Part shown: positions 374-35,330 of the stretch, piece by piece
How positions within the stretch are numbered: position 1 is the first letter of the stretch
Layout of the letters: every line of letters starts with the position of its first letter
NCBI GenBank assembly: GCA_963769215.1
Contig: CAVYKX010000019.1
Span: forward strand, 93,314 to 157,313
Reading direction: 5' to 3'
DNA: 64,000 bases
From: Candidatus Sulfomarinibacteraceae bacterium
Lineage (GTDB): Bacteria > Acidobacteriota > Thermoanaerobaculia > Thermoanaerobaculales > Sulfomarinibacteraceae
Position numbers and translations under genes: made by a program
The notes under the pieces: model-generated
Databases searched by the model: none
Seen by the model: the letters and a program-made list of their open reading frames with translations, nothing else
Told to the model about the DNA's origin: nothing

Positions 374-485
374 GGTGGGTGGGCGGGCTCTGTGCTTTCC
401 TCTGTGCTCTCTGTGCACTCTGTGGTTCTGTCCGGGGTGGGTGGAAATCCAAAATCCAAAATCCAAAATCCAAAATCCGAATTGT
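374..485. repeat. Intergenic composite repeat E1: G-tract core GGGTGGGTGGGCGGG (374-388) + CTCTGTGC-type 8-mer array (388-432); second core GGGGTGGGTGG (435-445) + AAAATCC x5 array (446-480)
   Basis: Read directly from the sequence. Lies just downstream of the radA stop (496). ORF-track peptides such as KSKIQNPKSK are translations of the array. Confidence 0.8.
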
Positions 486-495
486 GTCTCTGTGG

Positions 496-1850
496 TTATT
501 CGCCCGCCTGGAGCAGGCGAGGCAAATCAGCGACCGTGGAAATCGGAGTGGCGGGGAGATCGAGCTTGCCGTTGGCGTCTCGAGCCGGCAGGGCGACGCG
601 GCCGAAACCGAGGGCGGACGCTTCGCGCACCCGCTCCGCTGCCCGGCTCACCGCCCTGACTTCGCCGAGAAGACCGATCTCTCCGAATACGGCGAGCTCG
701 GGAGCCAGTGGTAGATCTGCGGCCGACGAGAGCAGCGCGGCCGCGACTGCAAGATCGAGGGCGGGCTCGCGCAACGACAGACCACCGACGAGATTGACGA
801 AGACATCCCTGTCCGCAAAGCCGACGCCGGCGTGCCGCTCGAGCACCGCGAGGAGGAGGGCGAGGCGCGACGAGTCGAGCCCGTGAGCCACCCTGCGGGG
901 TGTTCCGAGAGACGACGGCGAGACCAGCGCCTGGACCTCGACCAGGAGGGGCACCGACCCTTCGAGGGCGACCGCAACTGCGGAACCCGCGAGCGCCGCT
1001 CTGCCGGTCCTCGAGCAACCATGCCGAGGCGTTCTGTACCGCCTCCAGACCGCTGCCGGTCATCGAATAGAGCGCGAGCTCGGCGATAGTGCCGAAACGG
1101 TTTTTCCCGGCTCGCAGCGCGCGCAGTTCGTGCCCGGGTTCGCCTTCGAGGGACATCACGACATCGACCAGGTGCTCGAGGAGCTTCGGGCCCGGCGATC
1201 ATTCCGTCTTTGGTGACGTGACCCACAAGGACAACCGGCACGCCGCGGGTCTTGGCGAAGTGCTGAAAGCGCGACGCCACCTGCCGCACCTGGCTCACCG
1301 AACCGGCCACCGCATCGATAGAGTCGAGGACGGCAGTCTGCACTGAGTCCACAACCACCAACTGCGGTTCGAGATCTTCGATTTGAGCGAGCACCGATTC
1401 ACACGAGGTTTCGGGCAAGAGGAACAGATTCGGTTCGAGGCCGCCGATTCGCCGAGCGCGCAATGCGATCTGTTCCGCCGACTCTTCTCCGGTGACATAC
1501 ACAACCGGACCGCAGTCGCGAGCGAGGGACGCAGCAACCTGGAGGAGAAGGGTCGACTTTCCAATCCCCGGTTCGCCGGCGAGGAGCACCAGCGAGCCCG
1601 GCACCAGACCACCTCCGAGTACCCGGTCGAGCCCGTCGAGCCCGGTCGGAGTGCGGGCAGCCGGAGCGGCCGCGGCCTCGGTCACCGGGATGGCCGCTGC
1701 TCCACGGCGCGGTACGGCCCCGGCCTTCTTCTTCTTCGGTTGAGAAGGTTGTTCGGCGTAGCAATTCCATTCTCCGCACCCCGGACACTGGCCGAGCCAT
1801 TTGCCGGATTCGTGGCCGCACGAGGTGCAGAAGAAAACGGTGTCAGCCAA
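496..1850 (-). CDS. radA: DNA repair protein RadA/Sms; reading frame broken twice (about 1195 and about 1003)
   Basis: The N-terminus in ORF 648..1850 has the zinc ribbon CTSCGHESGKWLGQCPGCGEW and Walker A GEPGIGKST. The protein continues as VMSLEGEPGHELRALRAGKNRFGTIAEL in ORF 527..1159 and as the Lon-like C-terminus PLLVEVQALV... in ORF 496..954. Confidence 0.85.
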
Positions 1851-1859
1851 TATCCGCCC

Positions 1860-3345
1860 TCAGTTGAGGGCCCCGCCGGCGAGGCCGAGGCTGTACTTGA
1901 CGTCGTCGTCGGCCCAGGTGATGCCGCCGCCGAAAAGGACTGAGGACTTTGCGGACACCAGCGGGTCGTCCCAGCCGGCCGTCACGAAGATGTTCCTGCT
2001 GATGAAATACCGGCCCTCGAATCTCAGGTGCACGGCTTCGTCGAACTCGCGACCGAAATCGTAGGCTTCGAAGACCAGGGTCAGCGGCCGCTTGCCGAGT
2101 TTGATGCTGTGGTCGACGCCGACACCGCCTGTGGATTCGATCAGCCCTGCGCGCACGATCGTGTCCGGGAAGACCCGGTATCCGACCTGGGCGTTGAGGC
2201 CGATCTTGTCGTCGACTTTGATTTTCTCCTGGAGATAGGATTCCTCGGTCCCGTCGGGGATAGGTCGTGGTCACATACTGGGCGTCGGTGCGGACGCGGC
2301 CGTACGGCATGTCCACCCCCTCGATCCGGAAGAACCGGTTCTTGGTGGTCCACAGGTCGAAGCCGAAGGCCGTTCGAGACTGGTCGGTGGAGGGCAACGC
2401 CTCGGCGCGGAGCGCGACCTGGAGCTCGTAGCGGCGATAGCGGCCCATGGTTTCGTTGAGAGTTCCAATGCCGTCTTCGATGGAGTCGAGGGTGCTGTTG
2501 AAATTGTCGACGGTGGTTTCGTCGTTGACAAGTTTGCCGATGGTGCCTTCGCCCGAAGAGATTTTGCCCGTGATCTCGTTGAGGTTTTCGGCTGACACCT
2601 GAAGGCGGTCCGTGAGCTCGCGAATGTTGGCCATCGACGCCTGCAGGTCGTCCCGATTTTCTCCCACCACACCGTTGAGTTGATCTGCGAGGAGGTTCAT
2701 TTTTTCGGTGATCTTCGGCAACTCGTCGCGAAGGGTGGCGGAGAAGTCGGCGAAGTTGGCGGTGGTTTCGTTGACATTGGCCTGGTTCTCGGCGATCAGA
2801 ACTTTGAGCGAGGCCGTGAGGTCGCGAATGTTGGCCACGATCTCGCTGATCGCCTCTTCACCCTGAGTTCCTCCAATCGAGCCCCGCAGCGCTACGGTGA
2901 CTTCCTTGACGTCGGCGCCGATCTCGGTGGCCACCCGCAACACGTCGTCAAATGTCGGTGTGATGGCGCCACCGAGCACGAAGCCGTCGGGAAGGAGCGG
3001 GAGTGACGGGTCGCCAGGCAGAATTTCGATGTACCGGTCGCCGAGCATCCCGAGACTGGCGATCTGCGCCGAAGCGCCCTGGTGCAGCTGGACCTGCGGG
3101 TCGAGCGAAAGGGTCAACAGCGCGGCGGATCCGTCGAGTGAGATCGCGTCCACCTTGCCCACCCGAACGCCGGCGATTCGCACGGCAGCCTTGCGGTCGA
3201 GGCCTGCAACCGAGGAAAAACGGGCGGTGACGACGGTCCGTTCTCCACGCTCACCGACGGGGATGTCCTCGATCTTGATGATGAATACGCCGAGAATGAT
3301 CATTCCCATGAGCATGAACATGCCGATCCGTGCGGCTGGGGTCAT
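1860..3345 (-). CDS. MCE (MlaD-like) domain protein, long form; frame break at the G4 run 2256-2259
   Basis: ORF 1843..3345 has an N-terminal TM helix plus an MCE-like segment (VTARFSSVAGLDRKAAVRIAGVRVGKVDAISL) and long helical repeats. The C-terminus continues in ORF 1860..2156 after one extra base in a homopolymer. It overlaps mlaF by 4 nt. Confidence 0.7.
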
Positions 3346-4139
3346 GACTCGTCCTCCAGTTCTTCTGGCATCTCACCCTCGAGGAAACCTCGCACGAAGC
3401 GGTTCCGAGACTTGGCAAATGTCTCCGGAACATCCACCTGCAGGATCTGCCCGCGCCGCATGATGGCGATCCGGTCGGCAATCCGGTAGGCGAGGCTCAT
3501 GTCATGGGTGATCGTGACCACCGTGACATCGAGTTCGGCTCGGAGCTGATTGATCACCCGGCCGATGGCGGCGGTGTTGATCGGGTCGAGGCCGGTGGTG
3601 GGCTCGTCGAAGAGCAGGATCTTCGGTTCGAGTGCGATGGCGCGCGCGAAGCCGACGCGGCGCCTCATGCCGCCGGAGAGTTCAGACGGCATCTTGTCTT
3701 CGATGCCGGGCAGTCTCACCAGCTTCAGACACTCGTCGACTCGGGCCGCCACTTCTTCGGGATTCTTGTCGGTGTGGCGCCGAAGTGGAAAGGCGATGTT
3801 GTCGAACACCGTCATCGAGTCGAAGAGGGCTCCCTCCTGGAAGCTCATGCCGAACTGCTTCCGCAGGACGAGGACCGCCTCCGCGGGGGCGAGGGTGAGA
3901 TCGACACCGTCAACCACCACGTGTCCGTCATCGGGCTGCAGGAGCCCGATCAGATGCTTGATGAAGACCGACTTGCCGGCGCCGGATCCGCCGACGATGA
4001 CGAATGATTCTCCCCGCAGGACATCGATCTCGATGCCGCGGAGGACCTTCTTGTCACCGAAGGACTTGTGGAGGCCGATGACCGAGATCATCGGCGGTGC
4101 GATCGTTGGATCGTGGGCGGTTGAATTCATCATCATCAT
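3342..4139 (-). CDS. mlaF: ABC transporter ATP-binding protein, MlaF-like
   Basis: Intact 265-aa ORF with Walker A GGSGAGKS, signature LSGGMRRRV and Walker B LLFDEP. Start/stop overlaps link it to the flanking permease and MCE genes. Confidence 0.8.
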   Translation of the reverse strand: MMMMNSTAHDPTIAPPMISVIGLHKSFGDKKVLRGIEIDVLRGESFVIVGGSGAGKSVFIKHLIGLLQPDDGHVVVDGVDLTLAPAEAVLVLRKQFGMSFQEGALFDSMTVFDNIAFPLRRHTDKNPEEVAARVDECLKLVRLPGIEDKMPSELSGGMRRRVGFARAIALEPKILLFDEPTTGLDPINTAAIGRVINQLRAELDVTVVTITHDMSLAYRIADRIAIMRRGQILQVDVPETFAKSRNRFVRGFLEGEMPEELEDES

Positions 4140-4939
4140 CAGAACAAGATCTTTGTCAGGAAGAAGTCCGAAAGGAGGATATACATGGAGGCGGTGACCA
4201 CCGCGGAGGTGGTGGACCTGCCGACCCCTTCAGCTCCGCCCGCAGTGTAAAAACCCTTGGTGCAGCCGGTGACCGACAGGATGAGACCGAAGAACGCCGC
4301 CTTGATGAGCCCCGAGGTGACGTCGTTGACTTCGAGAAACTGAAACGTCCGTTCGATGTAGAGAAAACTGTTTGCGCCGAAGAGGCCGACCGATACCAGC
4401 CACCCACCAATGATGCCGATGGCATCTCCCATGATGGTGAGCACCGGCAACATCAGAATCGAAGCGTTGACGCGCGGAACCACCAGGTAATGGACCGGTT
4501 CGGTAGCCATCGCGTAGAGAGCGTCGATCTGTTCGGTGACGCGCATGGTGCCGATCTCGGCAGCCATCGCCGAACCCACCCGACCGGCGACCATCAGCCC
4601 GGTGAGCACCGGCGCCAGCTCGCGGGTCAGCGACAGCGCCACCACCGAGCCGACAAAACCCTCGGCGTGAAATCGCTCGAATCCGCGGTAGGTCTGGAGT
4701 GCCAGGACCATGCCCGTGAACAGACACGTGAGAAAGACCACCGGGATCGAGTCCCAGCCGACCCGCACCATCTGGCGCAGGAGCTCAGGGGCATCGAACG
4801 GCCGTCGAAAGGTCCACAGGACGCTCGATGCCATGATGTAGAAGAAGCGGCCGAGGTCATCGAGGCCGCGGAGGATGAGCGTTCCGAAACGATCGAGCCA
4901 GTCGAGGATGCCCCCGGATCGGGCGGTGTCCTCTACCAC
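4139..4939 (-). CDS. mlaE: ABC transporter permease, MlaE-like
   Basis: Intact 266-aa polytopic membrane ORF immediately upstream of the MlaF-like ATPase, which is the typical Mla operon order. Confidence 0.75.
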
Positions 4940-6319: not shown

Positions 6320-6541
6320 GGGTCTCTCATCCTACCTTAGATTGGTCTACGAATCTCCATCGAATTCTGTTCCTCGCCCGGGTCCGAGCCCGTCCCGATC
6401 CCGTTCCCGACGTGCAGGGACAGGGGCGGCGTTCTGCGGCAGGTACAGAAGACAGCTAACAGCGGCAGCATTCGGCGACGGCGATCCACCGTTGGACGCG
6501 CTCTTCTGCGAACGCCACACCGCGTGGCGGATTCTCCGTTC

Positions 6542-6789
6542 AAACGTTGAAACGTGAGCCTCTTTCAGAATTCGAATATTCCGCCGGAATCAGTTTTGGG
6601 CCTGGTCGAGGCAAGGCGGCACAGGTGCCGCCACTACCCCCAAGAGGCATCCCCCTGTAGTGGCGGGGCCTGCCCCGCCTTTGACCGTGAATTTTGCAAG
6701 AGGCTCACGTTGCACGTTCAACGTTGGGTATCGGGCGGTGGCGGAAGGTTGGGAACGTTCTAACATTTAAACGTTCCAACGTTCCAACG
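6542..6789. repeat. Intergenic composite repeat E2: AACGTT-type arms forming a 13-bp perfect inverted repeat (6551-6563 / 6699-6711) around a 135-bp GC-rich structured insert, followed by G-rich core GGGCGGTGGCGG (6733-) + AACGTTC-type array (6753-6789)
   Basis: Read directly. Lies between the dnaB upstream region and the 3' end of the TonB-receptor gene. Confidence 0.7.
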
Positions 6790-6792
6790 AAA

Positions 6793-6812
6793 GAGGGGCC
6801 CGAAGGCCCCTC
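6793..6812 (-). terminator. Putative intrinsic terminator hairpin GAGGGGCC-CGAA-GGCCCCTC
   Basis: 8-bp GC stem with a tetraloop, 24 nt downstream of the receptor stop (6836). On the minus-strand RNA it is followed by UUUCGUUGG, which is only a moderately U-rich tail. Confidence 0.5.
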
Positions 6813-6835
6813 GTGATTGAAGATCCGATTTCAGA

Positions 6836-9800: not shown

Positions 9801-9944
9801 CGCGACGACCGAGACCCCGGGCAGCGGGTCGCCGTTGGGATCGACCACCACGCCGGACATCGATCCGGTTGTCACTCCCTGGGCCTGGACGAGGCCTGCC
9901 CACAAGAGCGCGCAGATTGATAAACAGATTGCCTTTTTCATCAT
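6836..9944 (-). CDS. TonB-dependent receptor with N-terminal carboxypeptidase-regulatory-like domain; three frame breaks (about 9505, about 9458, about 7635)
   Basis: GGGAGG RBS then ATGATG at 9944. Signal peptide MKKAICLSICALLWAGLVQAQG, then GVVVDPNGDPLPGVSVVA (ORF 9261..9965). The plug/barrel is in ORF 7621..9456. The C-terminal barrel ending ...RLGVRWSF is in ORF 6836..7567. The 7635 break lies at a short A run (GCAAGGG versus the expected GCAAAGGG). Confidence 0.85.
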
Positions 9945-10097
9945 CGTGACCTCCCTATTTCTCACCTCAAAAAAATTACGGGACCATACCCTTTTATGAA
10001 CGGGATCATACCACCGACCACGACCATCGAGGCCGGTTCAGAACAAGATTTTTGTCGCACCGCGGCACAGTCTGAAAATCCCATTTTGGAACGCATC

Positions 10098-13064: not shown

Positions 13065-14274
13065 GTGAAACGGCTGCGTCTGCTCACGGGAGGCGAATCG
13101 CACGGACCGGGTTTGACGGCGATCCTCGAGGGTCTCCCTGCCGGACTCGAGCTCGACCGTGAGCGAGATCGACGGCCGGCTGGCGCGCCGCCAGCACGGC
13201 TTCGGACGAGGTGGGCGCCAGCGCATCGAAAAAGATGTGGTCACCGTAACGGGTGGTCTGCGCGACGGCCGCACCCTGGGCGGTCCGCTCGTGCTCGAGG
13301 TAACGAACCTCGACTGGAAAAATTGGGCCGATGTGATGGATCCGTGGCAGGTGGATGCCGAGGTTGCGGCCAAGAGAGCGGTCACCCGGCCGCGTCCGGG
13401 ACACGCCGACTACTCCGGCGGAGCCGCTACCGACCAGTTGGCGGACATGCGCAATGTGCTCGAACGCTCGTCGGCGCGGGAGACCGCGGCGCGGGTCGCG
13501 GCGGGCGCGGTGTGCGGCCAGCTGTTGAGCCGTTACGGCGTCTCCATGCGGTCGGCGGTGTTGCGGGTCGGTCCGCACGAAGTGCTTGCGGGCGCCCCGT
13601 CGTGGAACGAGCTGAAAGGTGTGCGCTTTGATTCCCCGCTGGTGACCCCGAAACCGGATCACGAGGAACCGATTGTCGAGGCGATCCGCGAGGCACGCCA
13701 GGCGGGGGAGACCATGGGCGGCATCGTGGGTGCGGTGGTTCGCGGCCTTCCCCCCGGTCTCGGCTCCTACGCCCATTGGGACCGAAAGCTGGACGGCCGG
13801 CTGGCGCAGGCCCTGACATCCATTCACTCGGTCAAAGCGGCGGCGATCGGTGACGGCATCGAGGTTGCTTCGCTGCTGGGGTCGCAGGCCCACGACCCCT
13901 ACGAGCTCGTCGACGGACGACTCGAACGGACCGGCAACCGGGCGGGTGGGCTCGAAGGCGGGGTCACGAACGGGGCCGATCTCGTGGTCCGTGCCTTTTT
14001 CAAACCGATCTCGACGCTCCGCCGGGGGCTGCCGTCGGTCGATCTTTCCACCGGCGAACCCGGAGCGACCGAGTGGGAACGCTCCGACGTGACGGCCATC
14101 GGCGCAGCGCCGGTGATTGTCGAAGCCATGTTGGCGCTGATCCTCGGTGACGCTCTGCTCGAGAAGCTCGGCGGCGACGCGATCGCCGACACGGACGCGG
14201 CGTGGAAAGCGCTGGCCGAACGGCTTGCACCGTGGTGGACGCCGGCACGAGGAATTCTCAATTTTGAATTTTGA
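13065..14274 (+). CDS. aroC: Chorismate synthase; frame break near 13153
   Basis: A GTG at 13065 gives VKRLRLLTGGESHGPGLTAILEGLPAGLEL (in the frame of ORF 12969..13631). This joins ORF 13159..14274 (LARRQHGFGRGGRQRIEKD..., SARETAARVAAGAV, GGLEGGVTNG). The last about 7 codons and the stop are encoded by repeat E3. Confidence 0.9.
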
Positions 14275-14353
14275 ATTTTGAATTTCCGCCTGCCCTCCCG
14301 AAGAACGTGGTGGAGGGGACCATTGAGAATTGAGAATTAAAAACCGAGAATTC
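14252..14353. repeat. Intergenic hairpin repeat E3: (GAATTTT)n - CCGCCTGCCCTCCC - loop - GGTGGAGGGG - (GAGAATT)n
   Basis: Read directly. Overlaps the aroC stop codon (14272-14274). Confidence 0.75.
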
Positions 14354-14397: not shown

Positions 14398-15246
14398 ATG
14401 AAAGAACAAAGATTGGCGGTGGTAACCGGCGCGTCCTCCGGGATTGGTGCGGCAACCGCGAAGGCTTTGGCTCGCGAAGGATGGCGGGTGGTGTTGGTGG
14501 CGAGACGGGCCGAACGCCTCGAAGAGTTCGTTGCCGAGATCACGAATGCCGGAGGGGTGGCGATCGCCGAGGCCCTGGACGGCGCGGATGGGAATGCCGT
14601 CCTTGCGATGGCGGAGCGCGTGCACTCGAAATGGGGCGCCCCGTCACTGCTGGTCAACAGCGCGGGCGCCGGTGTCTGGCGGTTTCTCGAAGAGACCTCT
14701 CCGGAGCAGATCGTCGAAATGATGGGCGCACCCTTTCTGGCTGCGGCCAACGCGAGCCGTGCATTCATGCAGGGGATGCTCGATGCCGGCGAAGGGCTGC
14801 TGGTCCATGTGGGTTCGCCGGCTTCGGTGATGCCGTGGCCAGGAGCCACCGCCTACACGGCCTCTCGTTGGGCGTTGCGCGGCCTGCACGAAGCCCTCTG
14901 CATGGACCTCGCCGGCACAGGCGTTCGCAGCTCGCTGATCTACTTCGGCGAAGTTTCGAGTGAGTACTTCGACGCCAACCCGGATTCTCGCGAACACATC
15001 CCGAGCATCGGCGGCTGGGTTCCAACCAGCTCTCCGGAGCGTTGCGCCGAGGTGATTCTCGAAATTGTGCGGCGCCCGCGAAGGGTTGTGTTCTATCCGA
15101 TTCGCCCTTCGCCTCATGGCCTGGATGGCGGCTGTCGCGCCGGCGCCGACCAGATGGTTGATCAGCCTCACCGGCCGCAGACACCAACGTTAAAACGTTT
15201 AAACGTTCAACGTTATAACGTTTCGAGGTCTCGACATTCCTGCTAA
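14398..15246 (+). CDS. Short-chain dehydrogenase/reductase (SDR) family oxidoreductase; possible C-terminal frame break near 15105 (alternative end 15189)
   Basis: TGASSGIG cofactor motif and a central NSAG. The active-site region reads AYTASRWA (Y-x3-R). In the +1 frame the tail reads LRLMAWMAAVAPAPTRWLISLTGRRHQR*, which looks more protein-like than the annotated tail that runs through repeat E4. Confidence 0.75.
   Translation: MKEQRLAVVTGASSGIGAATAKALAREGWRVVLVARRAERLEEFVAEITNAGGVAIAEALDGADGNAVLAMAERVHSKWGAPSLLVNSAGAGVWRFLEETSPEQIVEMMGAPFLAAANASRAFMQGMLDAGEGLLVHVGSPASVMPWPGATAYTASRWALRGLHEALCMDLAGTGVRSSLIYFGEVSSEYFDANPDSREHIPSIGGWVPTSSPERCAEVILEIVRRPRRVVFYPIRPSPHGLDGGCRAGADQMVDQPHRPQTPTLKRLNVQRYNVSRSRHSC
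15186..15222. repeat. AACGTT tandem array E4 (5 units, period 7-8)
   Basis: AACGTTAAAACGTTTAAACGTTCAACGTTATAACGTT read directly. No adjacent G-core. Confidence 0.7.
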
Positions 15247-15266
15247 CCTTGAGTGGAGAGGGTGCC

Positions 15267-16271: not shown

Positions 16272-16344
16272 TGGCGGGCCCTGAAGGACCCGCCTACACG
16301 TGTATTCGGTTTTCTCCTCTAGGCGGGTCCTTCAGGGCCCGCCA
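16272..16344. repeat. 25-bp perfect inverted repeat TGGCGGGCCCTGAAGGACCCGCCTA (16272-16296 / 16320-16344), 23-nt spacer
   Basis: Read directly. Each arm is itself a near-palindrome (GGCGGGCCC/GGACCCGCC). Confidence 0.8.
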
Positions 16345-16402: not shown

Positions 16403-16450
16403 GGGTGGGTGGAAACGTTCAACGTCTCAACGTTCAACGTTTCAACGTCT
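16403..16450. repeat. Half-element E5: core GGGTGGGTGG + AACGTYN array
   Basis: GGGTGGGTGGAAACGTTCAACGTCTCAACGTTCAACGTTTCAACGTCT, ending 13 nt before the carB stop (16463). Confidence 0.75.
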
Positions 16451-16462: not shown

Positions 16463-19400
16463 TCAGTCCCCCAGCGACGCCGCCCACGCCGGCTGTCCGG
16501 TGGCATCGTCCTGCAGCGCGCGGACCGAGAGTGGTCCGCGGCGCAAGGCAGCCACGGCTTCGGCGGCGGCGTGGGCTCCGGGGATGGTCGTGAAATAGAG
16601 CACCCCGGCGTCGAGCGCCGCTCTCCGGATCGACCCGGCGTCCTGTGCGGCGCGCTGTCCGGCTGCCGTGTTGACCACCATCTTCACGTCACCATCGCTC
16701 AGGAGCTCGGGGATGTCGGGGCGCCCTTCGCCGACCTTGAACACTCGATGAACGTCCGGGAAACCGGCGGCGTGGAGACTGGCGGCTGTGCCCTCGGTGG
16801 CGCTGAGTTCGAAACCGAGTTCCGAAAACCGGGCCGCCAGGGCCGGCAGCCGTCCCTTGTCGCGGTCGGCCAACGACAGCAGCACGCGGCCGTGCTCGGG
16901 GAGGCGCCAGCCGGCGGCCAACGCAGCCTTCGCAAAGGCTTCGCCGAAGGTGCGCCCTCGGCCCATGACCTCGCCGGTGGAACGCATCTCGGGACCCGGC
17001 AGTGGGTCAACGCCGGGGAATCGTTCGAAGGGGAAGACCGGCAGCTTGACCGCGACCTCGGTCGGCACTCCGTCGTGGACGCCGAGGTCGGCGAGCTTGG
17101 CTCCGGCGCAGACCCGGGCCGCCAGCTCCGCCCACGGTGTGCCGCTGGCGCGGGCCAGGAACGGCACGGTGCGCGAGGCCCGCGGGTTGACCTCGATGAC
17201 GAAGACGGTGTTTTCCTGGATCGCGAACTGTACGTTGATCAGCCCGCGAACGTCGAGGGCCAGAGCGAGGAGCCGGACCTGGCGCCGGAGTTCGGCCTGC
17301 ATCTCGAGGGGCAGGCTCACCGGAGGCGTGACGGCGGCCGAGTCGCCCGAGTGCACCCCCGCCTCTTCGATATGCTCCATGACGCCGCAGATGACGACGC
17401 GTTCGCCGTCGGCGACGGCGTCGACATCGACCTCGACCGCCCGCTCGAGGAAGTGGTCGAGGAGGACGGGCCGGTCCGGATCGACCGCGGCGGCACGCCG
17501 CAGGTACCCGGCGAGCTGATCGTGCCCGTAGACAATCTCCATCGCCCGTCCACCGAGGACGTACGAGGGCCTCACGAGAACGGGGAACCCGAGCTCGTCG
17601 GCTGCCACCGCGGCCTCTTCGGCCGAAGTCACCATTCGTCCGGGCGGTTGCTGCAATCCGAGTTCGTCGAGCAATTCGGCGAAGCGCCCCCTGTCCTCGG
17701 CGCGGTCGATGGCGTCGCGCGTCGTTCCGCGAATCGGGATGCCGTGGTTTTCGAGGTCGGCGGCCAGCTTGAGCGGGGTCTGACCGCCAAGCTGAACGAT
17801 GACGCCGATCGGCCGTCTCCGCGGCGCAGATTTCGAGGACGTCTTCGGTGTGGAGAGGATCGAAGTGGAGCCGGTCGACCGCGTCGTAGTCGGTGGAGAC
17901 GGTTTCGGGGTTGCAGTTCACCATGACCGCTTCATAGCCTTCGGCGCGCAGCCCGGCCACCGCCTCGACGCAGCAGGCGTCGAATTCGATGCCCTGGCCG
18001 ATTCGCACCGGGCCGCCGCCGAGAATGATGATCGGCCGTCTCGGCGTCGGCTGCTCGTCGCCGTCACCGAAGCTGCCGTAGAGATAGGGGGTGCGCGCCT
18101 CGAATTCGGCGGCGCAGGTGTCGACCCGCCGACGAATCCGAAACATCCCGGCCTCGAATCGGCGGTGTTCGATCTCCGAAGTTGCCTCGCCAAGGAGTCG
18201 CCCGATGTGGGCGTCGGAAAAGCCGAGCCGCTTGACGGCGGCCAACACCCCGGGTTCATCGATGCGGGCGGCAATCTCGGACTCCGCCGCCACCAACCCG
18301 TTTATTCGGCGGAGGAACCAGGGGTCGACGCCGGTCACCGCCTGAACGCGCTCGACACCCCAACCGCGGCGCAGGGCTTCGGCGAGCTCCCAAAGACGGT
18401 CCGGGGTGGGCTCGGCAAGCCGCCGTTCGAGATCCGCGTCGTCGGCCGCCGCAATCGCCGGCGGCGCTTCCAACGAATCGCGATCGACTTCGAGCGACCG
18501 GATCGCTTTGAGAAGGGCTTCCTCGAACGAGCGCCCCATGGCCGCGACTTCTCCCACAGCCTTCATCGAGGTGCCGAGGCGGGAGTCCGCTCCCGGGAAC
18601 TTCTCGAAGGCGAAGCGCGGAATTTTGACCACCACGTAATCGAGAGCGGGCTCGAACGACGCCGGCGTGGATCCGGTGATGTCGTTGGTGATCTCGTCGA
18701 GCCGGCGCCCGAGCGCGACCTTGGCTGCGATGCGGGCGATCGGGAAACCGGTCGCTTTGGAAGCCAGCGCCGACGATCTCGAAACCCGTGGATTCATTTC
18801 GATGACCACGTAACGGCCGTCTTCCGGATTGACGGCGAATTGGACGTTGGCGCCGCCGGTGGCGACTCCGACCGCGTCGAGCACGACTCGAGCCGCGTCC
18901 CTCAGGACCTGGTACTCGCGGTCGGTCAGGGTCTGGGCCGGGGCCACCGTGATCGAGTCGCCGGTGTGGACTCCCATCGGATCGAGGTTTTCGATCGAAC
19001 ACACGACGACGAACGCGCCGGCCGAGTCGCGCATCACCTCGAGCTCGTACTCCTTCCAGCCGAGAACCGAGGCCTCGACCAACACCTGGTGGGCCGGCGA
19101 GGCCTCCAGCCCCTTCTTGAGGAGGATCTCGAAGCTCTCGCGATCGTGAGCGATGCCGCCGCCCCACCCGCCGAGGGTGAAGGACGGGCGGAGAATCGCC
19201 GGCAGCCCGACGAGATCGAGTGCCGCGACGCCCGCCTCGACGGTAGTGACGGTCGCCGCCGGCAAGACCGGCAGACCGGCTTCCTCCATCGCGAGCCGAA
19301 ATTCCTCGCGGTCCTCGGCGAGGCGTATCGAGCGGGTCGACGCTCCGAGCAGCCGGACACCGAGCCTCTCCAGGACACCGGTCTCTTCGAGCTTGATGGC

Positions 19401-19704: not shown

Positions 19705-19811
19705 AGAATTCGGAATTCGGAATTCGGATTTCGGATTTTTCCCCCACCCGCCCGCTGTCGATCATGGGGGGAGGGCGGAAATTCCGAAATCCGAAATTCC
19801 GAATTCCAAAA

Positions 19812-19812
<1 letters not shown>
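19705..19812. repeat. Hairpin repeat E6 filling the carA-carB spacer: (GAATTCG/GGATTTC)n - CCCCCACCCGCCC - GCTGTCGATCAT - GGGGGGAGGGCGG - (AAATTCC/GAAATCC)n
   Basis: Read directly. The arms are about 80% complementary by hand alignment. The right arm abuts the carA stop codon (19812-19814). Confidence 0.8.
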
Positions 19813-20999
<1,187 letters not shown>

Positions 21000-21004
21000 A
21001 CCGT

Positions 21005-21126
21005 CCCCCAACCCGCCCATTTCGGATTTGCGGATTTTGGATTTCGGATTTCCCCCCAACCCGCCCGCGATCGACCATGGGGGGTTGGGCGGGAAATCCG
21101 AAATCCGAAATCCGAAATCCGAAATT
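21005..21126. repeat. Hairpin repeat E7: CCCCCAACCCGCCC - (GGATTTY)n - CCCCCCAACCCGCCC - GCGATCGACCAT - GGGGGGTTGGGCGGG - (AAATCCG)n
   Basis: Read directly. Lies between the divergent carA and ECF-sigma genes. Its core and loop are nearly identical to those of E6. Confidence 0.8.
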
Positions 21127-21772: not shown

Positions 21773-22278
21773 ATGAAGGTGCCCAACTGCCCGGACCACG
21801 AAAACCTGGTACTCGAGCTGGCTCGCGGGCTGCTCGACGACCGGGAGGCCCTGCGCGCGGAAGACCGTGCGACAGGACTGTGCGCACTGCGCGACGTGGT
21901 GGTCGGAGACCTTCGACACCGAAACGGTGGCTGTGGTGTCCTCCGCGGTGGGCGAGTCCTTCTCGGACTTTCGCGCCGCCGGCACGTCGCCGGCGAGCGT
22001 GGCTGGCCGCCGCGGCGGCAGCGGTGCTCGCGGTGGGCATTGGAACGACGACCGTGTTGTGGCGCAATGCCGAGGACGTCAGGCGGGACCGATCGCGGCT
22101 GAGACGAACGGTGCGGTCCTCTCGACCTGGGATTTTGAAGACGGTGTGACGCCTCTGCAGGCCTCTCCCGGCGAGCTCCGATGTGCCGACCCCGGCTACC
22201 GAGCGCGTGGGCGATCCGGCCGTGTTCACCAGCGACCTCGAATCGGGCGATCTCTCAGGGTGGTCCTCACACTCGTAA
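21773..22278 (+). CDS. Putative anti-sigma factor (zf-HC2-like N-terminus, one TM); at least 3 frame breaks
   Basis: GGAGG RBS then ATG at 21773. Begins MKVPNCPDHENLVLELARGLLDD..., then CAHCATWW in a second frame, a TM segment WLAAAAAAVLAVGIGTTTVLW in a third, and a tail ...VFTSDLESGDLSGWSSHS* ending at 22278. Its position directly after the ECF sigma gene supports the call. Confidence 0.5.
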
Positions 22279-22317
22279 CGACGTTCAAACGTTTGAACGT
22301 TCAACGGTTGAACGTTC
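22278..22317. repeat. AACGTT array E8 containing a 20-bp perfect palindrome ACGTTCAAACGTTTGAACGT (22281-22300)
   Basis: Read directly. Lies between the anti-sigma stop and the S9 peptidase start. Confidence 0.75.
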
Positions 22318-24454: not shown

Positions 24455-24558
24455 AATTTTGAATTTTCAATTCTGAATTTTGAATTCCCAACCACCCCTC
24501 CCGGGAAATGGGGCGGATGGGCGGGAATTCAAAATTCAGAATTCAAAATTGAAAATTC
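24455..24558. repeat. Hairpin repeat E9: (GAATTTT/CAATTCT)n - CCCAACCACCCCTCCC - GGGAAAT - GGGGCGGATGGGCGGG - (AATTCAAA/AATTCAGA)n
   Basis: Read directly. Starts 25 nt after the S9 peptidase stop. Confidence 0.8.
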
Positions 24559-25195: not shown

Positions 25196-25355
25196 GCATT
25201 CAAGGCTGCCAATTTGACCTGTAACGAGCGACCGGATTCCTGTATCTTCGGGCTTGAAATTGGATCGCATTTTGCTTAGCCTTTGCGATTGACAGCGGCC
25301 GTGTGACGCGAGGCGCCATTTCGCCCGCCGCGGCAGTTCCAGGGAGGCGTTCTCG

Positions 25356-27057: not shown

Positions 27058-27061
27058 AGGC

Positions 27062-28512: not shown

Positions 28513-28518
28513 CAATGC

Positions 28519-28635
<117 letters not shown>

Positions 28636-28647
28636 ACCGTGAGGTAG

Positions 28648-30024: not shown

Positions 30025-30041
30025 CGGCTACAATCAATTCG

Positions 30042-32333
30042 ATGGCTGAATGGCGTCAGCAATTCGACGATCTTCGGCAGCGTCGGCCTGATCTCGCAGA
30101 CCGCGTGTGCCGCCGGCTGCTGATGGACCTTCAGCGCAAGGGCTTGGTGGACCTCGACGCGCTCGACGAATTGGCCGAAGCCCTCAAGCTTGGCGGGGCG
30201 AGGCCCAAGTACGACCCCAACCGTCCCAAACCCCAGCAGAGCAGCCAATCGCGAAAGCAGCTCTACGATCTCGCCCTCGAGTACGCCGAGCGCCACATGA
30301 AACCGGAGAAGATCTCCGCGACCATTCTCCTGGTCGAAAAGAGAATGCTGGCGCACGACAGCGCTCGTCTCGCCGAGGACCTCGATACCCCGTTGCCGGA
30401 GCTGCGCCAGAAGATCCACGATTTTCTCGATTTCGCTCCGGGGCAGGTGGTGGCGCCGCGCGAGGATCTCATCGGCACCCGGGCCGCCCTGGTCCGGCGG
30501 CTGCTGACCGACCAGCTCGATTTCATCTCTGTCGCCAAACGCTTCATTCGGGTTCGCGAGTTCGCCGAGGTGCTCGACCACATCATCCCCACCGACGGCG
30601 GCCACGGCCGTCTCGGAGGCAAGGCCGCCGGTCTGATCCTGGCTCACGCCATCCTCTTCAAGGCCAAGCGGAGAGGACGGTTCGAGGGCGAGTACAAGGT
30701 CCCGACATCGTACTTTCTGCCCTCCAACGGCATCCTCGAGTTCATCGAGTACAACGGCCTCGAAGAGCTGATCAACGTCAAGTACAAGACCCCGGAAGAG
30801 GTGCGCGACGAGTACCCGTTGGTGGAAAGGCTCTTCAAGTCGTCGGAGTTTTCGCCGACGGTCCACAAAGGCCTCGGCGAGATGCTCTACCAGCTCGGCG
30901 AGGTGCCGTTGGTGGTGCGGTCGTCGAGCCTGCTCGAAGACCGGATCGGCCACGCGTTCTCGGGCAAGTACAAGAGCCTGTTCATCCCCAATCGCGGGCC
31001 CCTCGAAATGCGGCTTGCGCAGCTCGAGGACGCGGTTGCCGAGGTCTACGCCTCGATCTTCCACCCCGACCCCATCGAGTACCGGCGCGAGCGCGGGCTG
31101 ATCGACTTCCAGGAGCAGATGGGTGTGCTCATCCAGGAGGTGGTGGGGCGCGAGGTGGGCGGCATGCTCTTCCCGGTCTTTGCCGGAGTCGGGTTCTCAC
31201 GCTGTGAGATGCGGTGGTCTCCCCGAATCCGCCACACCGACGGTATGGCGCGCCTGGTGCTCGGTCTCGGGACCCGAGCCGTCGACCGGACTGTCGACGA
31301 CTACCCTGTGCTGGTGGCTCTCGAACAGCCGGCCCTGCGCTCGGTGCAGCAGCCGGACGAGGTCTATCGCTACTCGCAATCAGAGGTCGACGTGGTGGAT
31401 CTCCGCGAGAGCCAGTTCGAGTCGTTGCCTCTGGACGATTTCATGACCCGGGTCGGGCGCAAGATCCCCAATATGAACCGGGTCTTCTCGATTTACCGCG
31501 ACCGGCAGATCCTGCCGATGGTCGGGGTGATGGCGCAGGTCGATCCGCGCGAGTTGGTGGTGACCTTCGACGGACTGCTGCGTTCGGGCTTCCCGCGCCA
31601 GCTCAAGGCGATGCTCGATCTGCTGGAGGAGGGGCTCGGCGAGCCGGTCGACGTCGAGTTCGCACACGATGGGGACGACTTTTACATGCTGCAGTGCCGC
31701 GCACTCAGCCGCGGCGCGATGGCGCAGCGGGCCGAGATCCCGGACGTGGCCGATGACCACAAGGTCTTCTCGGCCGACCGCTATGTACAGATGGGCCAGG
31801 TGCGGGATCTGGAGTACGTCGTCCTGGTCGAACCGCGCGACTACGAGAGCCTCGGAAGCCGTGAGGAAATGCAGCGGGTTGCGCGCGCCGTGGGTGCAGT
31901 CAACAAAAAGCTGCCGGCGAAACGATTCCTCATGATGGGCCCCGGCCGCTGGGGCAGCCGCGGCGACATCAGGCTCGGCGTCCCCGTCACCTACGCGGAT
32001 ATCTCCCGCACCGCGATCCTGGTGGAGATCGCACGCAAGAAGGGCTCATACGTTCCCGACGTGTCCTTCGGCACCCACTTCTTCAACGATCTCGTGGAGT
32101 CCGGCATCCACTACCTTCCGCTCTACCCGGATGACGAAGGCGTGGTGTGGAACGGGGAGTTCCTCGAACAATCCGCCAATTGCCTGGCCGAGATCGTTCC
32201 TGATTTCGCTGACATGGAGAAAGTGGTGCGGGTCATCCGGGTCGCCGACGCCGCCGACGGAAAACTCCTCCAGGTCATCATGGATGCCGAGGACGACAAA
32301 GCGCTGGGCTTCCTTGCGGAACCCCAGCAATAA
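30042..32333 (+). CDS. PEP-utilising enzyme family protein (PEP/pyruvate-binding PPDK_N-type domain)
   Basis: Intact 763-aa ORF with GGKAAGLILAH, VVRSSSLLEDRIGHAFSGKYKSLF and MGVLIQEVV, which are typical of pyruvate,water/phosphate dikinase N-domains. Confidence 0.7.
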   Translation: MAEWRQQFDDLRQRRPDLADRVCRRLLMDLQRKGLVDLDALDELAEALKLGGARPKYDPNRPKPQQSSQSRKQLYDLALEYAERHMKPEKISATILLVEKRMLAHDSARLAEDLDTPLPELRQKIHDFLDFAPGQVVAPREDLIGTRAALVRRLLTDQLDFISVAKRFIRVREFAEVLDHIIPTDGGHGRLGGKAAGLILAHAILFKAKRRGRFEGEYKVPTSYFLPSNGILEFIEYNGLEELINVKYKTPEEVRDEYPLVERLFKSSEFSPTVHKGLGEMLYQLGEVPLVVRSSSLLEDRIGHAFSGKYKSLFIPNRGPLEMRLAQLEDAVAEVYASIFHPDPIEYRRERGLIDFQEQMGVLIQEVVGREVGGMLFPVFAGVGFSRCEMRWSPRIRHTDGMARLVLGLGTRAVDRTVDDYPVLVALEQPALRSVQQPDEVYRYSQSEVDVVDLRESQFESLPLDDFMTRVGRKIPNMNRVFSIYRDRQILPMVGVMAQVDPRELVVTFDGLLRSGFPRQLKAMLDLLEEGLGEPVDVEFAHDGDDFYMLQCRALSRGAMAQRAEIPDVADDHKVFSADRYVQMGQVRDLEYVVLVEPRDYESLGSREEMQRVARAVGAVNKKLPAKRFLMMGPGRWGSRGDIRLGVPVTYADISRTAILVEIARKKGSYVPDVSFGTHFFNDLVESGIHYLPLYPDDEGVVWNGEFLEQSANCLAEIVPDFADMEKVVRVIRVADAADGKLLQVIMDAEDDKALGFLAEPQQ

Positions 32334-32440
32334 TTCTCAATTTTGAATTTTGAATTTTGAATTCCCACCCACCCCCCGCCCACAATCCAGCGCTCTGGGT
32401 GGGTGGGAATTCCGAATTCCGAATTCCGACTGCGAATTCG
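32334..32440. repeat. Hairpin repeat E11: (GAATTTT)n - CCCACCCACCCCCCGCCC - loop - GGGTGGGTGGG - (AATTCCG)n
   Basis: Read directly. Occupies the whole gap between two convergent genes (stops at 32333 and 32445). Its arms use different heptads that still pair apart from periodic U-C and U-G positions. Confidence 0.8.
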
Positions 32441-32444
32441 ATCG

Positions 32445-33717
32445 CTACGCTTCCTTCACCCAGCGTACGATTTCCTTGAACTTCGGCTTCGAGCCGTGCA
32501 TCAGGATCCCGACGCGGTAGACCTTGGCGACGATCCAGGTGCAGGCGAGGATCGCGCCGACCATCAGGACGACCGAAGCGACGAGCTGGATCGCCGGCAC
32601 CTCGGTCAGGGTCATCCGCAGGAACATGAGCATCGGGGTGAAGAACGGAACCAGTGACAGCACCACCGCCAGCGTGCCGTCGGGCTGGTTGAGGATCTGC
32701 ATCATCAACACCAGCGGCACGATCAGAAACATCGTCACCACGCCCTGGAAGTTCTGCGCCTCCTGTTCGGTGTCGAAGGCGGCGCCGATGCCCGCGTACA
32801 GGGTCCCGTACAGCAGGAATCCAAGCACGAAATAGACAACGAAGAAGAACAGCAACTGGGCCGGCACAGCCGGCAACTCGATGCCGCTGATGCCGATCGC
32901 CGCTACCGCTCCCGGCGCGGAGATCACCGCCATCAAGACCGACCAGATCAGAAACTGGGTCAGACCGACCGCGCCGATGCCGAGGATCTTGCCGAGCATC
33001 AGCTCGAAGGGTTTGACCGTCGAGATTATGACCTCGACCACGTGCGAGGCCTTCTCCTCGAGCACCCCGCGCATGACGTAGATGCCGTACATCAATACCG
33101 TCACGTAGATGATCATCATGAAGACGTAGGCGAGGATAAAGCTTTGGCCCTGGTCCTCGGTCTCCTCGCCGCCCTTGCCGAGCTTGAGGGTCGAGAGGCC
33201 GGGCCGCCGGGTCAGCTCGCGCACCTTGTCGGGGTCGAGGCCGGCGCCGGTCAGCCGGTCCGCGACGGTGACGTTGTTGACCGATCGTTCGAGCACCGTG
33301 ATCAGCTTGAAAGCCGAGACGTTGGGCGCCACGTACTCGGGCTGACCCTCATCGGGCAGCGTTCTGGGCAGCACCAGCACGCCGTCGAAGGTCTTGGCCT
33401 GCACCTCCCGCTTGAGGCGCTCGCGGGTGGCCTCGACATCTGCGCCCCGGGTCCTGCTCGAGCAGGGAGATCGTGAGCTTTTCATCGTCGCCGGACAGCA
33501 GGCGCTGAACTTCGTCGTTGACGGGCTCGAAGAAGCGGCCGGTCTCGTCGACCACCGCGATCGTGAACTCGCCGCCACCGCGGGCCGCGAGGTAGGCGGG
33601 CAGGATCATGACCGCACCGAGGAAAAGCGGTACCAGCAGGGTCGAGATCCAGAACGCTTTGGTTCGGACCCGCTCCAGATACTCGCGACGGATGACTGCG
33701 AGGATTCGGTTAAGCAT
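32445..33717 (-). CDS. ABC-2 type transporter permease (NatB-like); frame break near 33455
   Basis: N-terminus MLNRILAVIRREYLERVRTKAFWISTLLVP (ORF 33349..33717). The large periplasmic loop plus 5 C-terminal TM helices are in ORF 32445..33578. Confidence 0.75.
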
Positions 33718-34622
33718 GGGCCTTGTCCTCCTCCACGGCGCGGATGAAGATGTTTTCGAGATCGGGGATGAAGCGGGTGAAGCTCTCGACCTCGCCGCGG
33801 TCGACCAGCGCCCGCAGCAGGTCCCTCGGTTCCTGGCCGTCCGCCAGTTCGAGGAGCTTTTCGTCGCCGAGCGGGTGGACCGAGATCACGCCCGGGAGGG
33901 TGGCGAGGTCGTCGTCCTCGAGATTCGCGCTGCACCTTCCAGGTGTTGCCGCCGTAGTCGTGGCGGATCTCCTCGAGCGAGCCGAGCAGGATCGGCCGCG
34001 CCCGGTTGATCAGGCAGATGTCGGAGCACAACTCATCCACCTGCGGCAGCACGTGGGTGGAGAGCACGATGGTCACGCCCTCGTCCTTCATCGCCTGCAT
34101 CAGGTCTTTGAGCTGGCGGGTGTTGATCGGGTCGAGGCCCGAGAACGGCTCGTCGAGGATCAGCAGCGGCGGCCGGTGGAGGATCGTGCCGATGAACTGG
34201 ATCTTCTGCTGCATGCCCTTGGAGAGGTCCTCCACCTTGTGGGTCGCCCACTCGTCGAGCTCGAAGCGCTCCAGCCAGGCCGAAGACCGTTTCTTCGCCT
34301 CGCCCGGCCGCAGCCCGCGGATCGTGCCCAGATAGACCAGGTGCTCGAGCACCTTCATCTTTTTATAGAGGCCGCGTTCCTCCGGCAGGTAGCCGATGAT
34401 CCGCCGACGGTCGTCGTCGACCGGCTCGCCGTCGAGCAGCACCGTGCCGCTGTCGGACGAGATGATCCGCATCACCATCCGGATAGTCGTGGTTTTCCCT
34501 GCGCCGTTGGGACCCAGCAGACCGAAGACCGACCCCCGCGGGACAGTGAAGCTGAGATCGTCCACCGCCACGTGGTCCCCATAGCGCTTGCTCAGATTCT
34601 GCAATTCGAGTATTGCGTCCAC
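33710..34622 (-). CDS. ABC transporter ATP-binding protein (NatA-like); frame break near 33930
   Basis: Walker A GPNGAGKTT, signature LSKGMQQKI and Walker B LILDEP (ORF 33606..34622). The shifted C-terminus ends ...EEDKAHA* at 33710 and overlaps the permease start. Confidence 0.8.
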
Positions 34623-35208
34623 TCCGCCTCCTTTTTCCGATGTCGGAGCATACTACGCGCGACTGTGACTGGTGTTCCACTGTCCTTTCATGCCCGTGCC
34701 CGTGCCCGGCGTGGGGATCGGAAGCGCGCTCCTCCGTTCGACGCGCTCTTCTGCAAACGCCACACCGCGTGGTTACTGGCGGCCTGCGGCCACCGTGAAG
34801 CACCGTCGCCAGCGAGCGGACCCATGAATTCGCCTCACGACGAATCCTGGGCCGCGGGTCGCAGCCGTCGGTGGTTTGCCACCCCTAACAATGTTTGGAC
34901 CATTCGCTGAACTGAGCGGAGGGCACTCGGTTCCAAACATTGTGAGAAGTGGCACGCCCGATCATCGCGCTGTTCTTCAAACCCGTATTGGCCGCCCACT
35001 CCTATGTCATCCCGAGCGGAGGTGACCGACCGGCTCTGCCGGGAGGGCACCGGAGTCGAGGGATCCCCCGAAATAGGAGAGTGACGCAATCACCCATGCC
35101 TCAAACCCAGCAATCCATTACCTCATCACAACCCCGCCCACCAAAAACCCAGCAAACCATTCACCGATCGACCCCCTGCCTTCTGATGACTCAGGAAATA
35201 CCTGGCTC

Positions 35209-35330
35209 CCCGCATTCCCCATTCCCGATCCGGGTGGGCGGGAACTCAAAACTCAGAACTCAAAACTCAGAACTCAAAACTCAAAACTGCATCATGTGGG
35301 TGGGTGGGCGGCATTCCTCATTCCTAATTC
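35209..35330. repeat. Composite repeat E12: (CATTCC)n - core GGGTGGGCGGG (35232-35242) - (AACTCARA)n array - core GGGTGGGTGGGCGG (35298-35311) - (CATTCCT)n
   Basis: Read directly. Lies 55 nt upstream of tRNA-Arg. Confidence 0.8.

Follow-up and report, generated by a model that had tools for sequence, protein, structure and literature searches.

Dispersed intergenic elements built of a G-tract core and five tandem heptads in a marine-sediment acidobacterium and its relatives

We describe a family of dispersed, non-coding elements that packs the gaps between core genes of a marine-sediment acidobacterium, Candidatus Sulfomarinibacteraceae, and of its relatives. The starting point is a stretch of 64 kb from this organism (63% G+C; contig CAVYKX010000019.1; hereafter the window), in which a preliminary description had picked out twelve loci, numbered E1 to E12 in order of position. 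The family is built from a module of about 50 nt, in which a G-rich core of the form (GGGY)3-4 is followed on the same strand by five heptads of the form AAHTC-NN. Two such modules placed head-to-head, with the cores central and the arrays toward the genes, make up a full form of 105-120 nt; single modules and direct chains of modules also occur, and an element whose two arrays match in type is a near-perfect palindrome. The novelty of the family lies in a G-tract core that is separate from the units, in several unit types side by side, in a length held strictly to five heptads and in an extreme density. We tentatively favor the view that the elements are a lineage-restricted, dispersed DNA repeat of the REP/BIME kind, which would turn over at the DNA level and act on RNA only through the structure that it imposes on transcripts.

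Architecture and enrichment of the elements

The grammar of the family was derived by orienting each array by the G-rich segment that adjoins it. In the window and in its relatives each array has a G-poor strand (258 G among 1687 array bases), on which the G-core is found at its 5' side, and G3 tracts are confined to the core and do not occur in the units. Read on this strand, the units are AAATCCG, AATTCCG, AATTCAA, AACTCAA, AATTCCT/CATTCCT and AACTCTC, all of them variants of a single pentamer, AAHTC, followed by two variable bases; A2, T4 and C5 of the heptad are near-invariant and positions 3, 6 and 7 vary. The phase of the array relative to the core is fixed: the array begins right after the core, often via a single C, and its end is usually a pentamer. 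Five units are found in 37 of 55 core-anchored arrays and four to six in 50 of them; the filter used in parsing skews the position frequencies of the weight matrix, not these unit counts. The arrays of the window have five motifs in nearly every case, the AACGTT type included. The preliminary description saw a fixed core joined to freely variable arms, and in this respect it has to be revised, because the arms follow a strict grammar of five AAHTC-NN at fixed phase. Given the single pentamer theme and the recurrence of the same unit types across genomes and loci, the units that had been called copy-specific are therefore members of a small common repertoire.

The repeats are present as first described at all twelve loci, and they form a genuine family rather than a chance pattern. 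Tandem Repeats Finder detects period-7/8 arrays at 12 of 12 loci, and a stringent scan for period-7 self-similarity returns nine arrays, all before 35.4 kb, against none in dinucleotide shuffles. The core motif GGGYGGGYGG has 15 matches in the window where 1.7 are expected, and three consecutive AAHTCNN units, with at most one mismatch, have 43 matches where 0.06 are expected; the latter fall only inside E1, E3, E6, E7, E9, E10, E11 and E12. Eight of the nine short-loop matches to a G-quadruplex (G4)-like pattern in the window also lie within elements. The G-core, which had been taken as common to the family, is present at most loci; E4 and E8 are AACGTT-N arrays without one, and E2 is a composite.

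Loci of the window

Six of the twelve loci are full forms. E3 (14252-14353) consists of a left array of the GAATTTT type (14252-14286), a C-core (14287-14299), a G-core (14309-14320) and a right array (14321-14353), and its left array holds the last codons and the stop of aroC (open reading frame (ORF) end at 14274). E6 (19705-19812) occupies the carA-carB spacer, with its left array at 19705-19739, C-core at 19740-19753, loop at 19754-19765, G-core at 19766-19778 and right array at 19779-19812. E7 (21005-21126) lies between the divergent starts of carA and an ECF-sigma gene and has an additional outer C-core (21005-21018) ahead of the left array (21019-21051), C-core (21052-21066), loop (21067-21078), G-core (21079-21093) and (AAATCCG)5 (21094-21126). 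E9 (24455-24558) starts 24 nt after the stop of an S9 peptidase gene; its (GAATTTT)-type array (24455-24486) and C-core (24487-24502) are separated by a 7-nt loop from the G-core (24510-24525) and an (AATTCAA)-type array (24526-24558), and the inverted arms of 48 nt match at 85%, with variant units mirrored between them. E10 (28519-28635) fills the spacer, probably within an operon, between co-directional ABC-auxiliary and DUF4340 genes, the downstream ATG being 12 nt away; it comprises a left array (28519-28552), C-core (28553-28567), loop (28568-28587), G-core (28588-28601) and (AATTCCG)5 (28602-28635). E11 (32334-32440) fills the gap between two convergent genes (stops at 32333 and 32445) and joins arms of different types, a GAATTTT left arm (32334-32363) and an AATTCCG right arm (32408-32440), around a C-core (32364-32381) and a G-core (32397-32407), with an array complementarity of 0.68.

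The single and direct forms are E1, E5 and E12. E1 (373-483, plus strand) is a direct tandem of two modules, the first with the core GGGTGGGTGGGCGGG (373-387) and a CTCTGTGC-type array (388-430), the second with the core GGGGTGGGTGG (434-444) and (AAATCCA)5 (445-483); a minus-strand Lon_C/ChlI-like ORF has its stop (496) at a distance of 12 nt from the array end. E5 (16403-16450, plus strand) is a single module with the core GGGTGGGTGG (16403-16412) and five AACGT-type units (16413-16450), and it ends 12 nt from the carB stop (16463, minus strand). E12 (35209-35330, plus strand) consists of direct modules upstream of tRNA-Arg: a C-rich, CATTCC-like remnant (35209-35231) is followed by the core GGGTGGGCGGG (35232-35242) with (AACTCAA)7 (35243-35291) and by the core GGGTGGGTGGGCGG (35298-35311) with a CATTCCT array (35312-35330). 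The G-core of the five direct or single modules of the window is always on the plus strand, where cumulative GC skew rises, in a sample too small to interpret. The three remaining loci are of the AACGTT type. E4 (15186-15222) has five AACGTT-N(1-2) motifs and sits in the 3' tail of an SDR ORF (14398-15246), past the Pfam domain, and E8 (22278-22317) has five AACGTT-type motifs at or just before the 5' end of the S9 peptidase ORF. The composite E2 (6537-6789) combines a hairpin of inverted AACGTT-type arms (6537-6566 and 6698-6729), which enclose a GTAG-type palindrome of a different family (6613-6681), with a G-rich segment (6733-6758) and a five-motif AACGTTC array (6759-6789).

The placement at gene ends that had been reported for these loci is borne out: stop codons lie 6-25 nt from E1, E5, E9 and E10, and E3 overlaps the end of aroC. 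The assignment of E6 and E10 to intra-operon spacers and of E11 to a convergent gap likewise stands. Stop codons adjoin the array ends about twice as often as start codons do (33 vs 18).

Two further observations concern the neighborhood of the elements. A 47-nt repeat with 91% identity (6481-6527 and 34726-34772), found upstream of a minus-strand dnaB-like gene and of an ABC ATPase gene, adjoins a heptad element in both copies (E2 and E12) and could be a common promoter or leader, or another repeat. In addition, carB (at about 17815) and aroC (at about 13110-13150) are each split by a frameshift; tblastn with the carB of a relative places the frame switch at 17815/17817, and the N-terminus of aroC lies in another frame. 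These are probably indel errors of long-read assembly rather than signs of pseudogenes, and the odd 8-nt units seen in some arrays could have the same cause.

Folding and pairing of the arms

Each of the six full forms folds into one long hairpin, with energies between -32 and -81 kcal/mol, and the hairpins of about 100 nt proposed in the preliminary description are thereby recovered. Compared with shuffled sequences the z-scores are -4.3 for E3, -6.5 (plus strand) and -6.9 (minus strand) for E6, -9.8 for E7, -7.4 for E9, -9.0 for E10 and -7.3 for E11. The direct-module loci E1 (z = +0.8) and E12 (z = +1.1) are unstructured and, if anything, less folded than the shuffles. The conserved pairing of the two arms, claimed along with the hairpins, holds within the window and does not extend to the family. 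Among 64 non-redundant array pairs from the window and its relatives, the two arrays of an element have a mean best ungapped complementarity of 0.75, compared with 0.62 after random re-pairing of left and right arms, and it reaches 0.85 or more in 30% of the real pairs against 8% of the random ones. The arms are of different types in about half or more of the elements. Arm pairing is thus enriched, and it is neither conserved nor required across the family.

No bias was found between sense and antisense folding energies in co-directional contexts (n = 20, mean difference +1.9 kcal/mol, p = 0.26), in a test made weak by the errors of gene calls based on G+C content at third codon positions; therefore no G-U signature of selection at the RNA level is seen. 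Rho-independent terminators, including bidirectional ones, resemble the elements in placing a GC-rich stem-loop at gene ends with A/T-rich flanks that extend the stem. The present stems, in contrast, are several-fold longer and more stable, have an A-rich, G-poor 3' flank, and also occur in promoter regions and operon spacers. We rejected the intrinsic terminator, which had been offered as an interpretation of the hairpins, because no T-tract follows the stem and the polarity is reversed, with the G-core preceding the A-rich, G-poor AAHTC array on both strands. A terminator scan of the interval 14-33 kb found 11 terminator-like sites against 13.6 expected, so that such sites are not enriched, and none of the 11 coincides with an element.

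Occurrence in relatives

Further copies of the family exist in more than 25 independent assemblies of Ca. Sulfomarinibacteraceae-like relatives (Acidobacteriota, Thermoanaerobaculia). The closest matches to carA come from metagenome-assembled genomes (MAGs) labeled Ca. Sulfomarinibacteraceae, Thermoanaerobaculales or Thermoanaerobaculia, with 74-84% amino acid identity, and across genome and metagenome scans the nearest carA has a nucleotide identity of 77%. Many projects have yielded the same architecture, in MAGs assembled from short or from long reads and in metagenome contigs, and an assembly artefact is therefore excluded.

The density of period-7 arrays shows a burst restricted to the clade, with 5.6 per 10 kb in the closest clade, 3.4 in the first 35.4 kb of the window, 0.64 in other Thermoanaerobaculia-like loci and 0.22 in other phyla; in the second, accessory half of the window it is zero. 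Cores are degenerate in the relatives, and a few modules of like design with other units occur in more distant Thermoanaerobaculia (L013 and L018; we number the loci from other genomes and contigs with the prefix L). In other phyla, our own scan returned sporadic inverted pairs of heptamer arrays. No description of such elements in Acidobacteriota was found in the literature, and a blastn search of E10 against the PLSDB plasmids gave no match.

Arrays of four to five units also occur in IMG/VR phage contigs of 43-65% G+C (L161-L176), with units such as AAATCCG, AATTCCG, CATCCTT, TATCTCT and similar G-poor heptamers. Several of them lie 0-20 nt upstream of a Shine-Dalgarno (SD) sequence and start codon, and in L161 a G-tract directly precedes the array. 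A role as a translation leader, which this position might suggest, was rejected: the orientation of the phage arrays is ambiguous, and within the clade the arrangement is a geometric consequence of the inward cores.

Turnover at the carA-carB spacer

Comparison of orthologous spacers at carA-carB, where E6 lies in the window, reveals both presence and absence of the element and turnover of its unit types. Distant Thermoanaerobaculia have no element here, and their carA stop and carB start either overlap or are no more than about 20 nt apart. Among the loci of the closer clade, about 24 hold an element at this spacer, 100-230 nt long. The carA stop codon is itself part of the first unit (TGATTTCGGATTTCG...; AATGAGGAATGAGG...). 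Three arm types on the left and at least six on the right are freely combined, for example GATTTCG with AACTCAA (L085, L086), GAATTAGG with AAATCCG (L081) and GAATTCG with CATTCCT (L095). At some loci only one to three units are left (L003, L005, L083/84) or none at all (L082), and at others a third module has been added downstream (L008, L020, L092). L081 and L089, whose carA genes are 92% identical, have the left arm in common and differ in the whole block from the C-core to the right arm.

The two elements that flank carA in the window, E6 and E7, are 85% identical across array end, core and loop, and the corresponding pair in L006 is closer to each other than to the copies of the window. 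This likeness of flanking copies suggests homogenization within genomes, and the mirrored variant units of E9 would fit an inverted duplication. Taken together, the comparison of sequences at these loci indicates that modules are gained, lost, duplicated in inverted orientation and homogenized within genomes at the DNA level, rather than that structure is conserved locus by locus.

Two smaller motifs accompany the elements around carA and carB. A small inverted repeat conserved in the clade, CTGGGCGG-N-GCCCAGTG, overlaps the GTG start of carB (for example ...GAACTGGGCGGTAGCTCAGTG in L085); it is present with or without the heptad element (L003) and replaces the ancestral ATGA stop/start overlap of the distant relatives. 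Upstream of carA, the loci of relatives and the window (about 20990-21004, minus strand) have a conserved (G)TTACATTCTSCCGAC motif, which follows the outer array end by 15-25 nt and precedes the carA ATG by about 10 nt. It is possibly a -10 region or part of a leader, in which case the array would occupy the position of a -35 or UP element.

Comparison with known repeat systems

The preliminary description held the family to be undescribed, which is correct for the lineage and the grammar and needs qualifying for the kind of element, since comparable arrays are known from Xanthomonas (PMC4692102) and Geobacter metallireducens (PMC2700814). Xanthomonas genomes each contain about 185 GGGAATC arrays with a preferred number of four units, among them 70-75 convergent inverted pairs capable of forming stem-loops; the arrays lie on average about 28 nt from the end of the upstream ORF, the same spacers are occupied in two species with varying length and sequence, and no function was found (Rehm et al., 2015; PMC4692102). 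Nostoc has heptamer arrays of GGGGA(C/T)T (PMC4692102). The present family resembles both in its intergenic tandem heptamers, small preferred copy number, inverted pairs and proximity to ORF ends, and the Xanthomonas unit read on the other strand, GATTC-CC, is close to the AATTC-CG found here. However, the Xanthomonas arrays have a G-tract in every unit and four units can form a G4, whereas the present units are G-poor, the G-tracts sit in a separate core, several unit types coexist and the mode is five rather than four. A G4 array of the Xanthomonas type was rejected because the units lack a G3 tract.

In G. metallireducens, three classes of sites consist of three to five tandem 7-9-mers paired on opposite strands around a variable center, with 8-24 pairs per class; some sites belong to two classes, and the sites are absent from the sister species (Aklujkar et al., 2009; PMC2700814). 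The sites of class 3 have five heptamers, MTYCTGA (AATTCTG/ACTCCTG), which read outward, and one pair lies between proB and proA; the authors guessed, without a test, that IHF/HU binds these sites (PMC2700814). The five-unit mode, the outward pairs, the intra-operon pair and the unit itself (AMTYC-TG against AAHTC-NN) are all reminiscent of the present family. The Geobacter sites differ in their far fewer copies and in that neither their description nor the class 3 alignment shows a conserved G-tract core.

The TAACTGA arrays of Beggiatoaceae, Cyanobacteria and Bacteroidetes lie just upstream of start codons, as 169 direct sets and one inverted (MacGregor, 2015; PMC4679880). These arrays and the cyanobacterial STRR heptamers share with the present family intergenic arrays of two to six copies at gene boundaries and a sporadic phylogenetic distribution; they differ from it in having essentially one unit, a nearly always direct orientation, no core and a position mainly before starts. 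Heptamer repeats as a class have been attributed to slippage (Mrazek, 2007, as cited in PMC4692102 and PMC4679880), and with at least three tandem 7-nt units, over-representation and a mainly intergenic position the present arrays belong to this class.

Repeats of the REP/BIME/REPIN kind resemble the elements in being short intergenic modules, single or in inverted doublets, that form hairpins of about 100 nt, are dense, vertically persistent and lineage-specific, occupy operon spacers and gene ends and are themselves targets for the insertion of other elements. Six dispersed intergenic inverted doublets that form hairpins are indeed what the full forms of the window represent. On the other hand, the present module is not a palindrome and has no GTAG-type 5' motif, and its arms are tandem heptads of several types; an imperfect palindrome of 20-40 nt with a 5' GT(A/G)G is not seen, the single modules being unstructured. 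CRISPR was rejected because the units are 7 nt long and contiguous and the elements are dispersed, with no repeats of 24-48 nt separated by unique spacers. Miniature inverted-repeat transposable elements, including Correia and ERIC elements, were rejected because the elements end in arrays of various types, show no flanking duplications at the borders inspected and include only E6 and E7 as close copies. Rfam at the gathering score returned only tRNA, and at E<=1 only sub-threshold, hairpin-like noise, with matches to miRNA precursor models (29.7 bits against a gathering score of 80 bits). Module architecture and unit size agree with the earlier exclusion of REP/BIME and CRISPR, and the elements belong to no Rfam family.

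A second family in the window is itself REP/REPIN-like. It is represented by an inverted doublet of small GC-rich hairpins after (G)TAG at 16272-16344 (TGGCGGGCCCTGAAGGACCCGCCTA ... TAGGCGGGTCCTTCAGGGCCCGCCA, with perfect 25-nt arms), by the related copy nested in E2 (6613-6681), and by another that interrupts the heptad element in the carA-carB spacer of L090.

Discussion

We favor, with the reserve stated at the outset, a reading in which the elements behave as non-coding DNA of the REP/BIME/REPIN class and occupy intergenic space right up to the stop and start codons. They would spread and change as modules are duplicated in inverted orientation or inserted next to others already in place, as units slip, and as copies convert one another. 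Transcripts that cross them would carry a very stable hairpin or G-rich structure, which may act as a barrier to 3' exonucleases or as a processing site of the RNase III type. The polarity of the module never sets a U-tract after the GC hairpin, so termination would not follow, and this may explain how operons such as carAB tolerate them.

Several points weigh against this reading. No mobilizing enzyme was identified in the 64-kb window or in the 20-kb loci of relatives, no target-site duplications were seen by eye at the borders of the elements, and the copies are not near-identical, unlike those of a recent transposition. With their sharp mode at five units, fixed phase and near-invariant A2, T4 and C5, the arrays resemble a recognition platform and not drifting selfish DNA, and selection for a function could be the reason why some element persists at one spacer throughout the clade.

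These features leave two substantial rivals, a protein-binding platform and RNA signals selected at each locus. The first, which we consider rather unlikely, is that each module is a platform for an oligomeric or multi-domain nucleic-acid-binding protein that reads five AAHTC pentamers at 7-nt spacing. The G-tract would then serve as anchor or insulator, and the elements would mark or insulate gene boundaries; the reader might act on RNA, as a protein akin to S1, Csp or HutP/TRAP, or on DNA, as a "global regulator" or nucleoid-associated protein. Such a platform would account for the unit number and phase, for conserved pentamer positions alongside the variable positions 3, 6 and 7, and for the same unit repertoire in different genomes. 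It has parallels in the five heptamers of Geobacter class 3, paired on opposite strands and proposed as sites of a global regulator (IHF/HU) (PMC2700814), in the TAACTGA arrays upstream of starts, proposed as S1, Csp or CsrA sites (PMC4679880), and in the (AAATCCG)4-5 arrays of phage contigs, several of which lie directly upstream of an SD sequence and start. However, there is no candidate protein, the unit type is not kept at orthologous positions, some close relatives are without elements, and the position weight matrix from which the conserved pentamer is read is partly biased by the parsing filter. The orientation of the phage arrays is ambiguous, at 12 vs 5 when judged by downstream starts but 8 vs 13 when judged by upstream stops. 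Two specific readers fit poorly. A Rho rut site with UC every 7 nt was set aside against the C periodicity of about 12 nt reported for rut sites, and the IHF consensus WATCAANNNNTTR gave no fit by eye.

A bolder version of this idea, and to our minds an improbable one, is that core and five heptads form the recognition platform of a widely distributed nucleic-acid-binding machine, with the present elements, the paired sites of Geobacter classes 1-3, the GGGAATC arrays of Xanthomonas and the (AAATCCG)n arrays before phage genes all belonging to one class of cis-element. If this were true, a single class of gene-boundary element would explain the dominance of heptamers among the long simple-sequence repeats of bacteria. 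Alternatively, the elements may be mobile DNA of a new type, which would build its arms by copying a 7-nt template over and over.

It is unlikely, in our estimate, that the elements are RNA signals selected at each locus, be it as U-tract-independent (I-shaped) terminators, as stabilizers of 3' ends or as intercistronic processing hairpins. The very stable hairpins of all six full forms in the window point in this direction, together with the excess of array ends at stops over starts (33 vs 18), the filling of the convergent gap by E11 and the mirrored variant units of E9; the lack of any enrichment of canonical terminators (11 vs 13.6 expected) would also make another 3'-end device plausible. 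Against this, the arms of most family members are non-complementary, single and direct modules are unstructured, and the sense strand shows no (G-U) stability bias. The stems lack a T-tract and have the reverse of a terminator's polarity, copies are found within operons (E6, E10) as well as in divergent promoter regions (E7, E12), and duplexes of 35-50 bp would be expected to serve as substrates of RNase III and not as protectors.

Very unlikely is a G4 device, in which the (GGGY)3-4 cores would form quadruplexes in DNA or RNA and affect replication, transcription or translation, with the arrays as accessory linkers. Cores such as GGGTGGGTGGGCGGG are canonical short-loop motifs, almost all G4-like matches of the window (8/9) fall in elements, and the heptamer arrays of Xanthomonas form G4 in vitro (PMC4692102). 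In the full forms, however, the G-core stands opposite a complementary C-core, so that a duplex or hairpin competes, many cores have only two to three intact G3 tracts and are degenerate in relatives, and the five-heptad grammar is left unexplained. That the elements are slippage-only microsatellites lying by chance beside G-rich sequence, or assembly artefacts, is scarcely credible. In its favor, heptamer simple-sequence repeats outnumber other long repeats in many bacteria, according to the work on polymerase slippage cited by PMC4692102 and PMC4679880, and the carB and aroC genes of the window contain probable indel errors. But slippage would not be expected to set arrays beside cores in fixed phase, to arrange them head-to-head or to give so narrow a distribution around five units, the family is present in more than 25 independent assemblies, and the enrichment of core and AAHTC, the orthologous-spacer data and the grammar effectively refute this explanation.

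The over-representation of heptamer arrays in many bacteria has stood as a question since 2007, and the present family is the most regular and densest example that we could document, with about one array per 2 kb of core genome. Its regularity, in the form of a fixed five-unit length, a fixed phase to the G-core and module-wise turnover, makes concrete tests possible. The elements also have practical consequences for the genomes that carry them: they extend ORFs (aroC, the SDR gene), confound the calling of gene starts, put a spacer of 100-230 nt where carA and carB ancestrally overlapped, and will confuse both the assembly of this abundant sediment lineage and the prediction of its terminators.

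Other repeats and a putative integrated island

The 3' half (35411-35463) of tRNA-Arg(ACG) (35385-35461) is repeated at 39610-39662 with 98% identity; this repeat is the signature of an integrated island, apparently of about 4.2 kb. No heptad elements are found in the island or in the remainder of the window beyond it. The island includes genes for a ParE toxin (35687-36001) and a Ser/Thr kinase (36730-39429). A perfect 19-nt palindrome (CCATTTTTCATTCGAACTG / CAGTTCGAATGAAAAATGG, 35459-35497) directly follows tRNA-Arg at the island junction, and a second palindrome within the putative island (36571-36658), with 35-nt arms that are 91% complementary, is unrelated to the heptad family. Four paralogous N-terminal regions of Ser/Thr kinases (36745-37364, 45957-46440, 61232-61847 and 63593-63899; 70-85% nucleotide identity) cluster in the element-free second half of the window, where further duplications are located at 44802/60729, 50651/53717 and 36166/41690.

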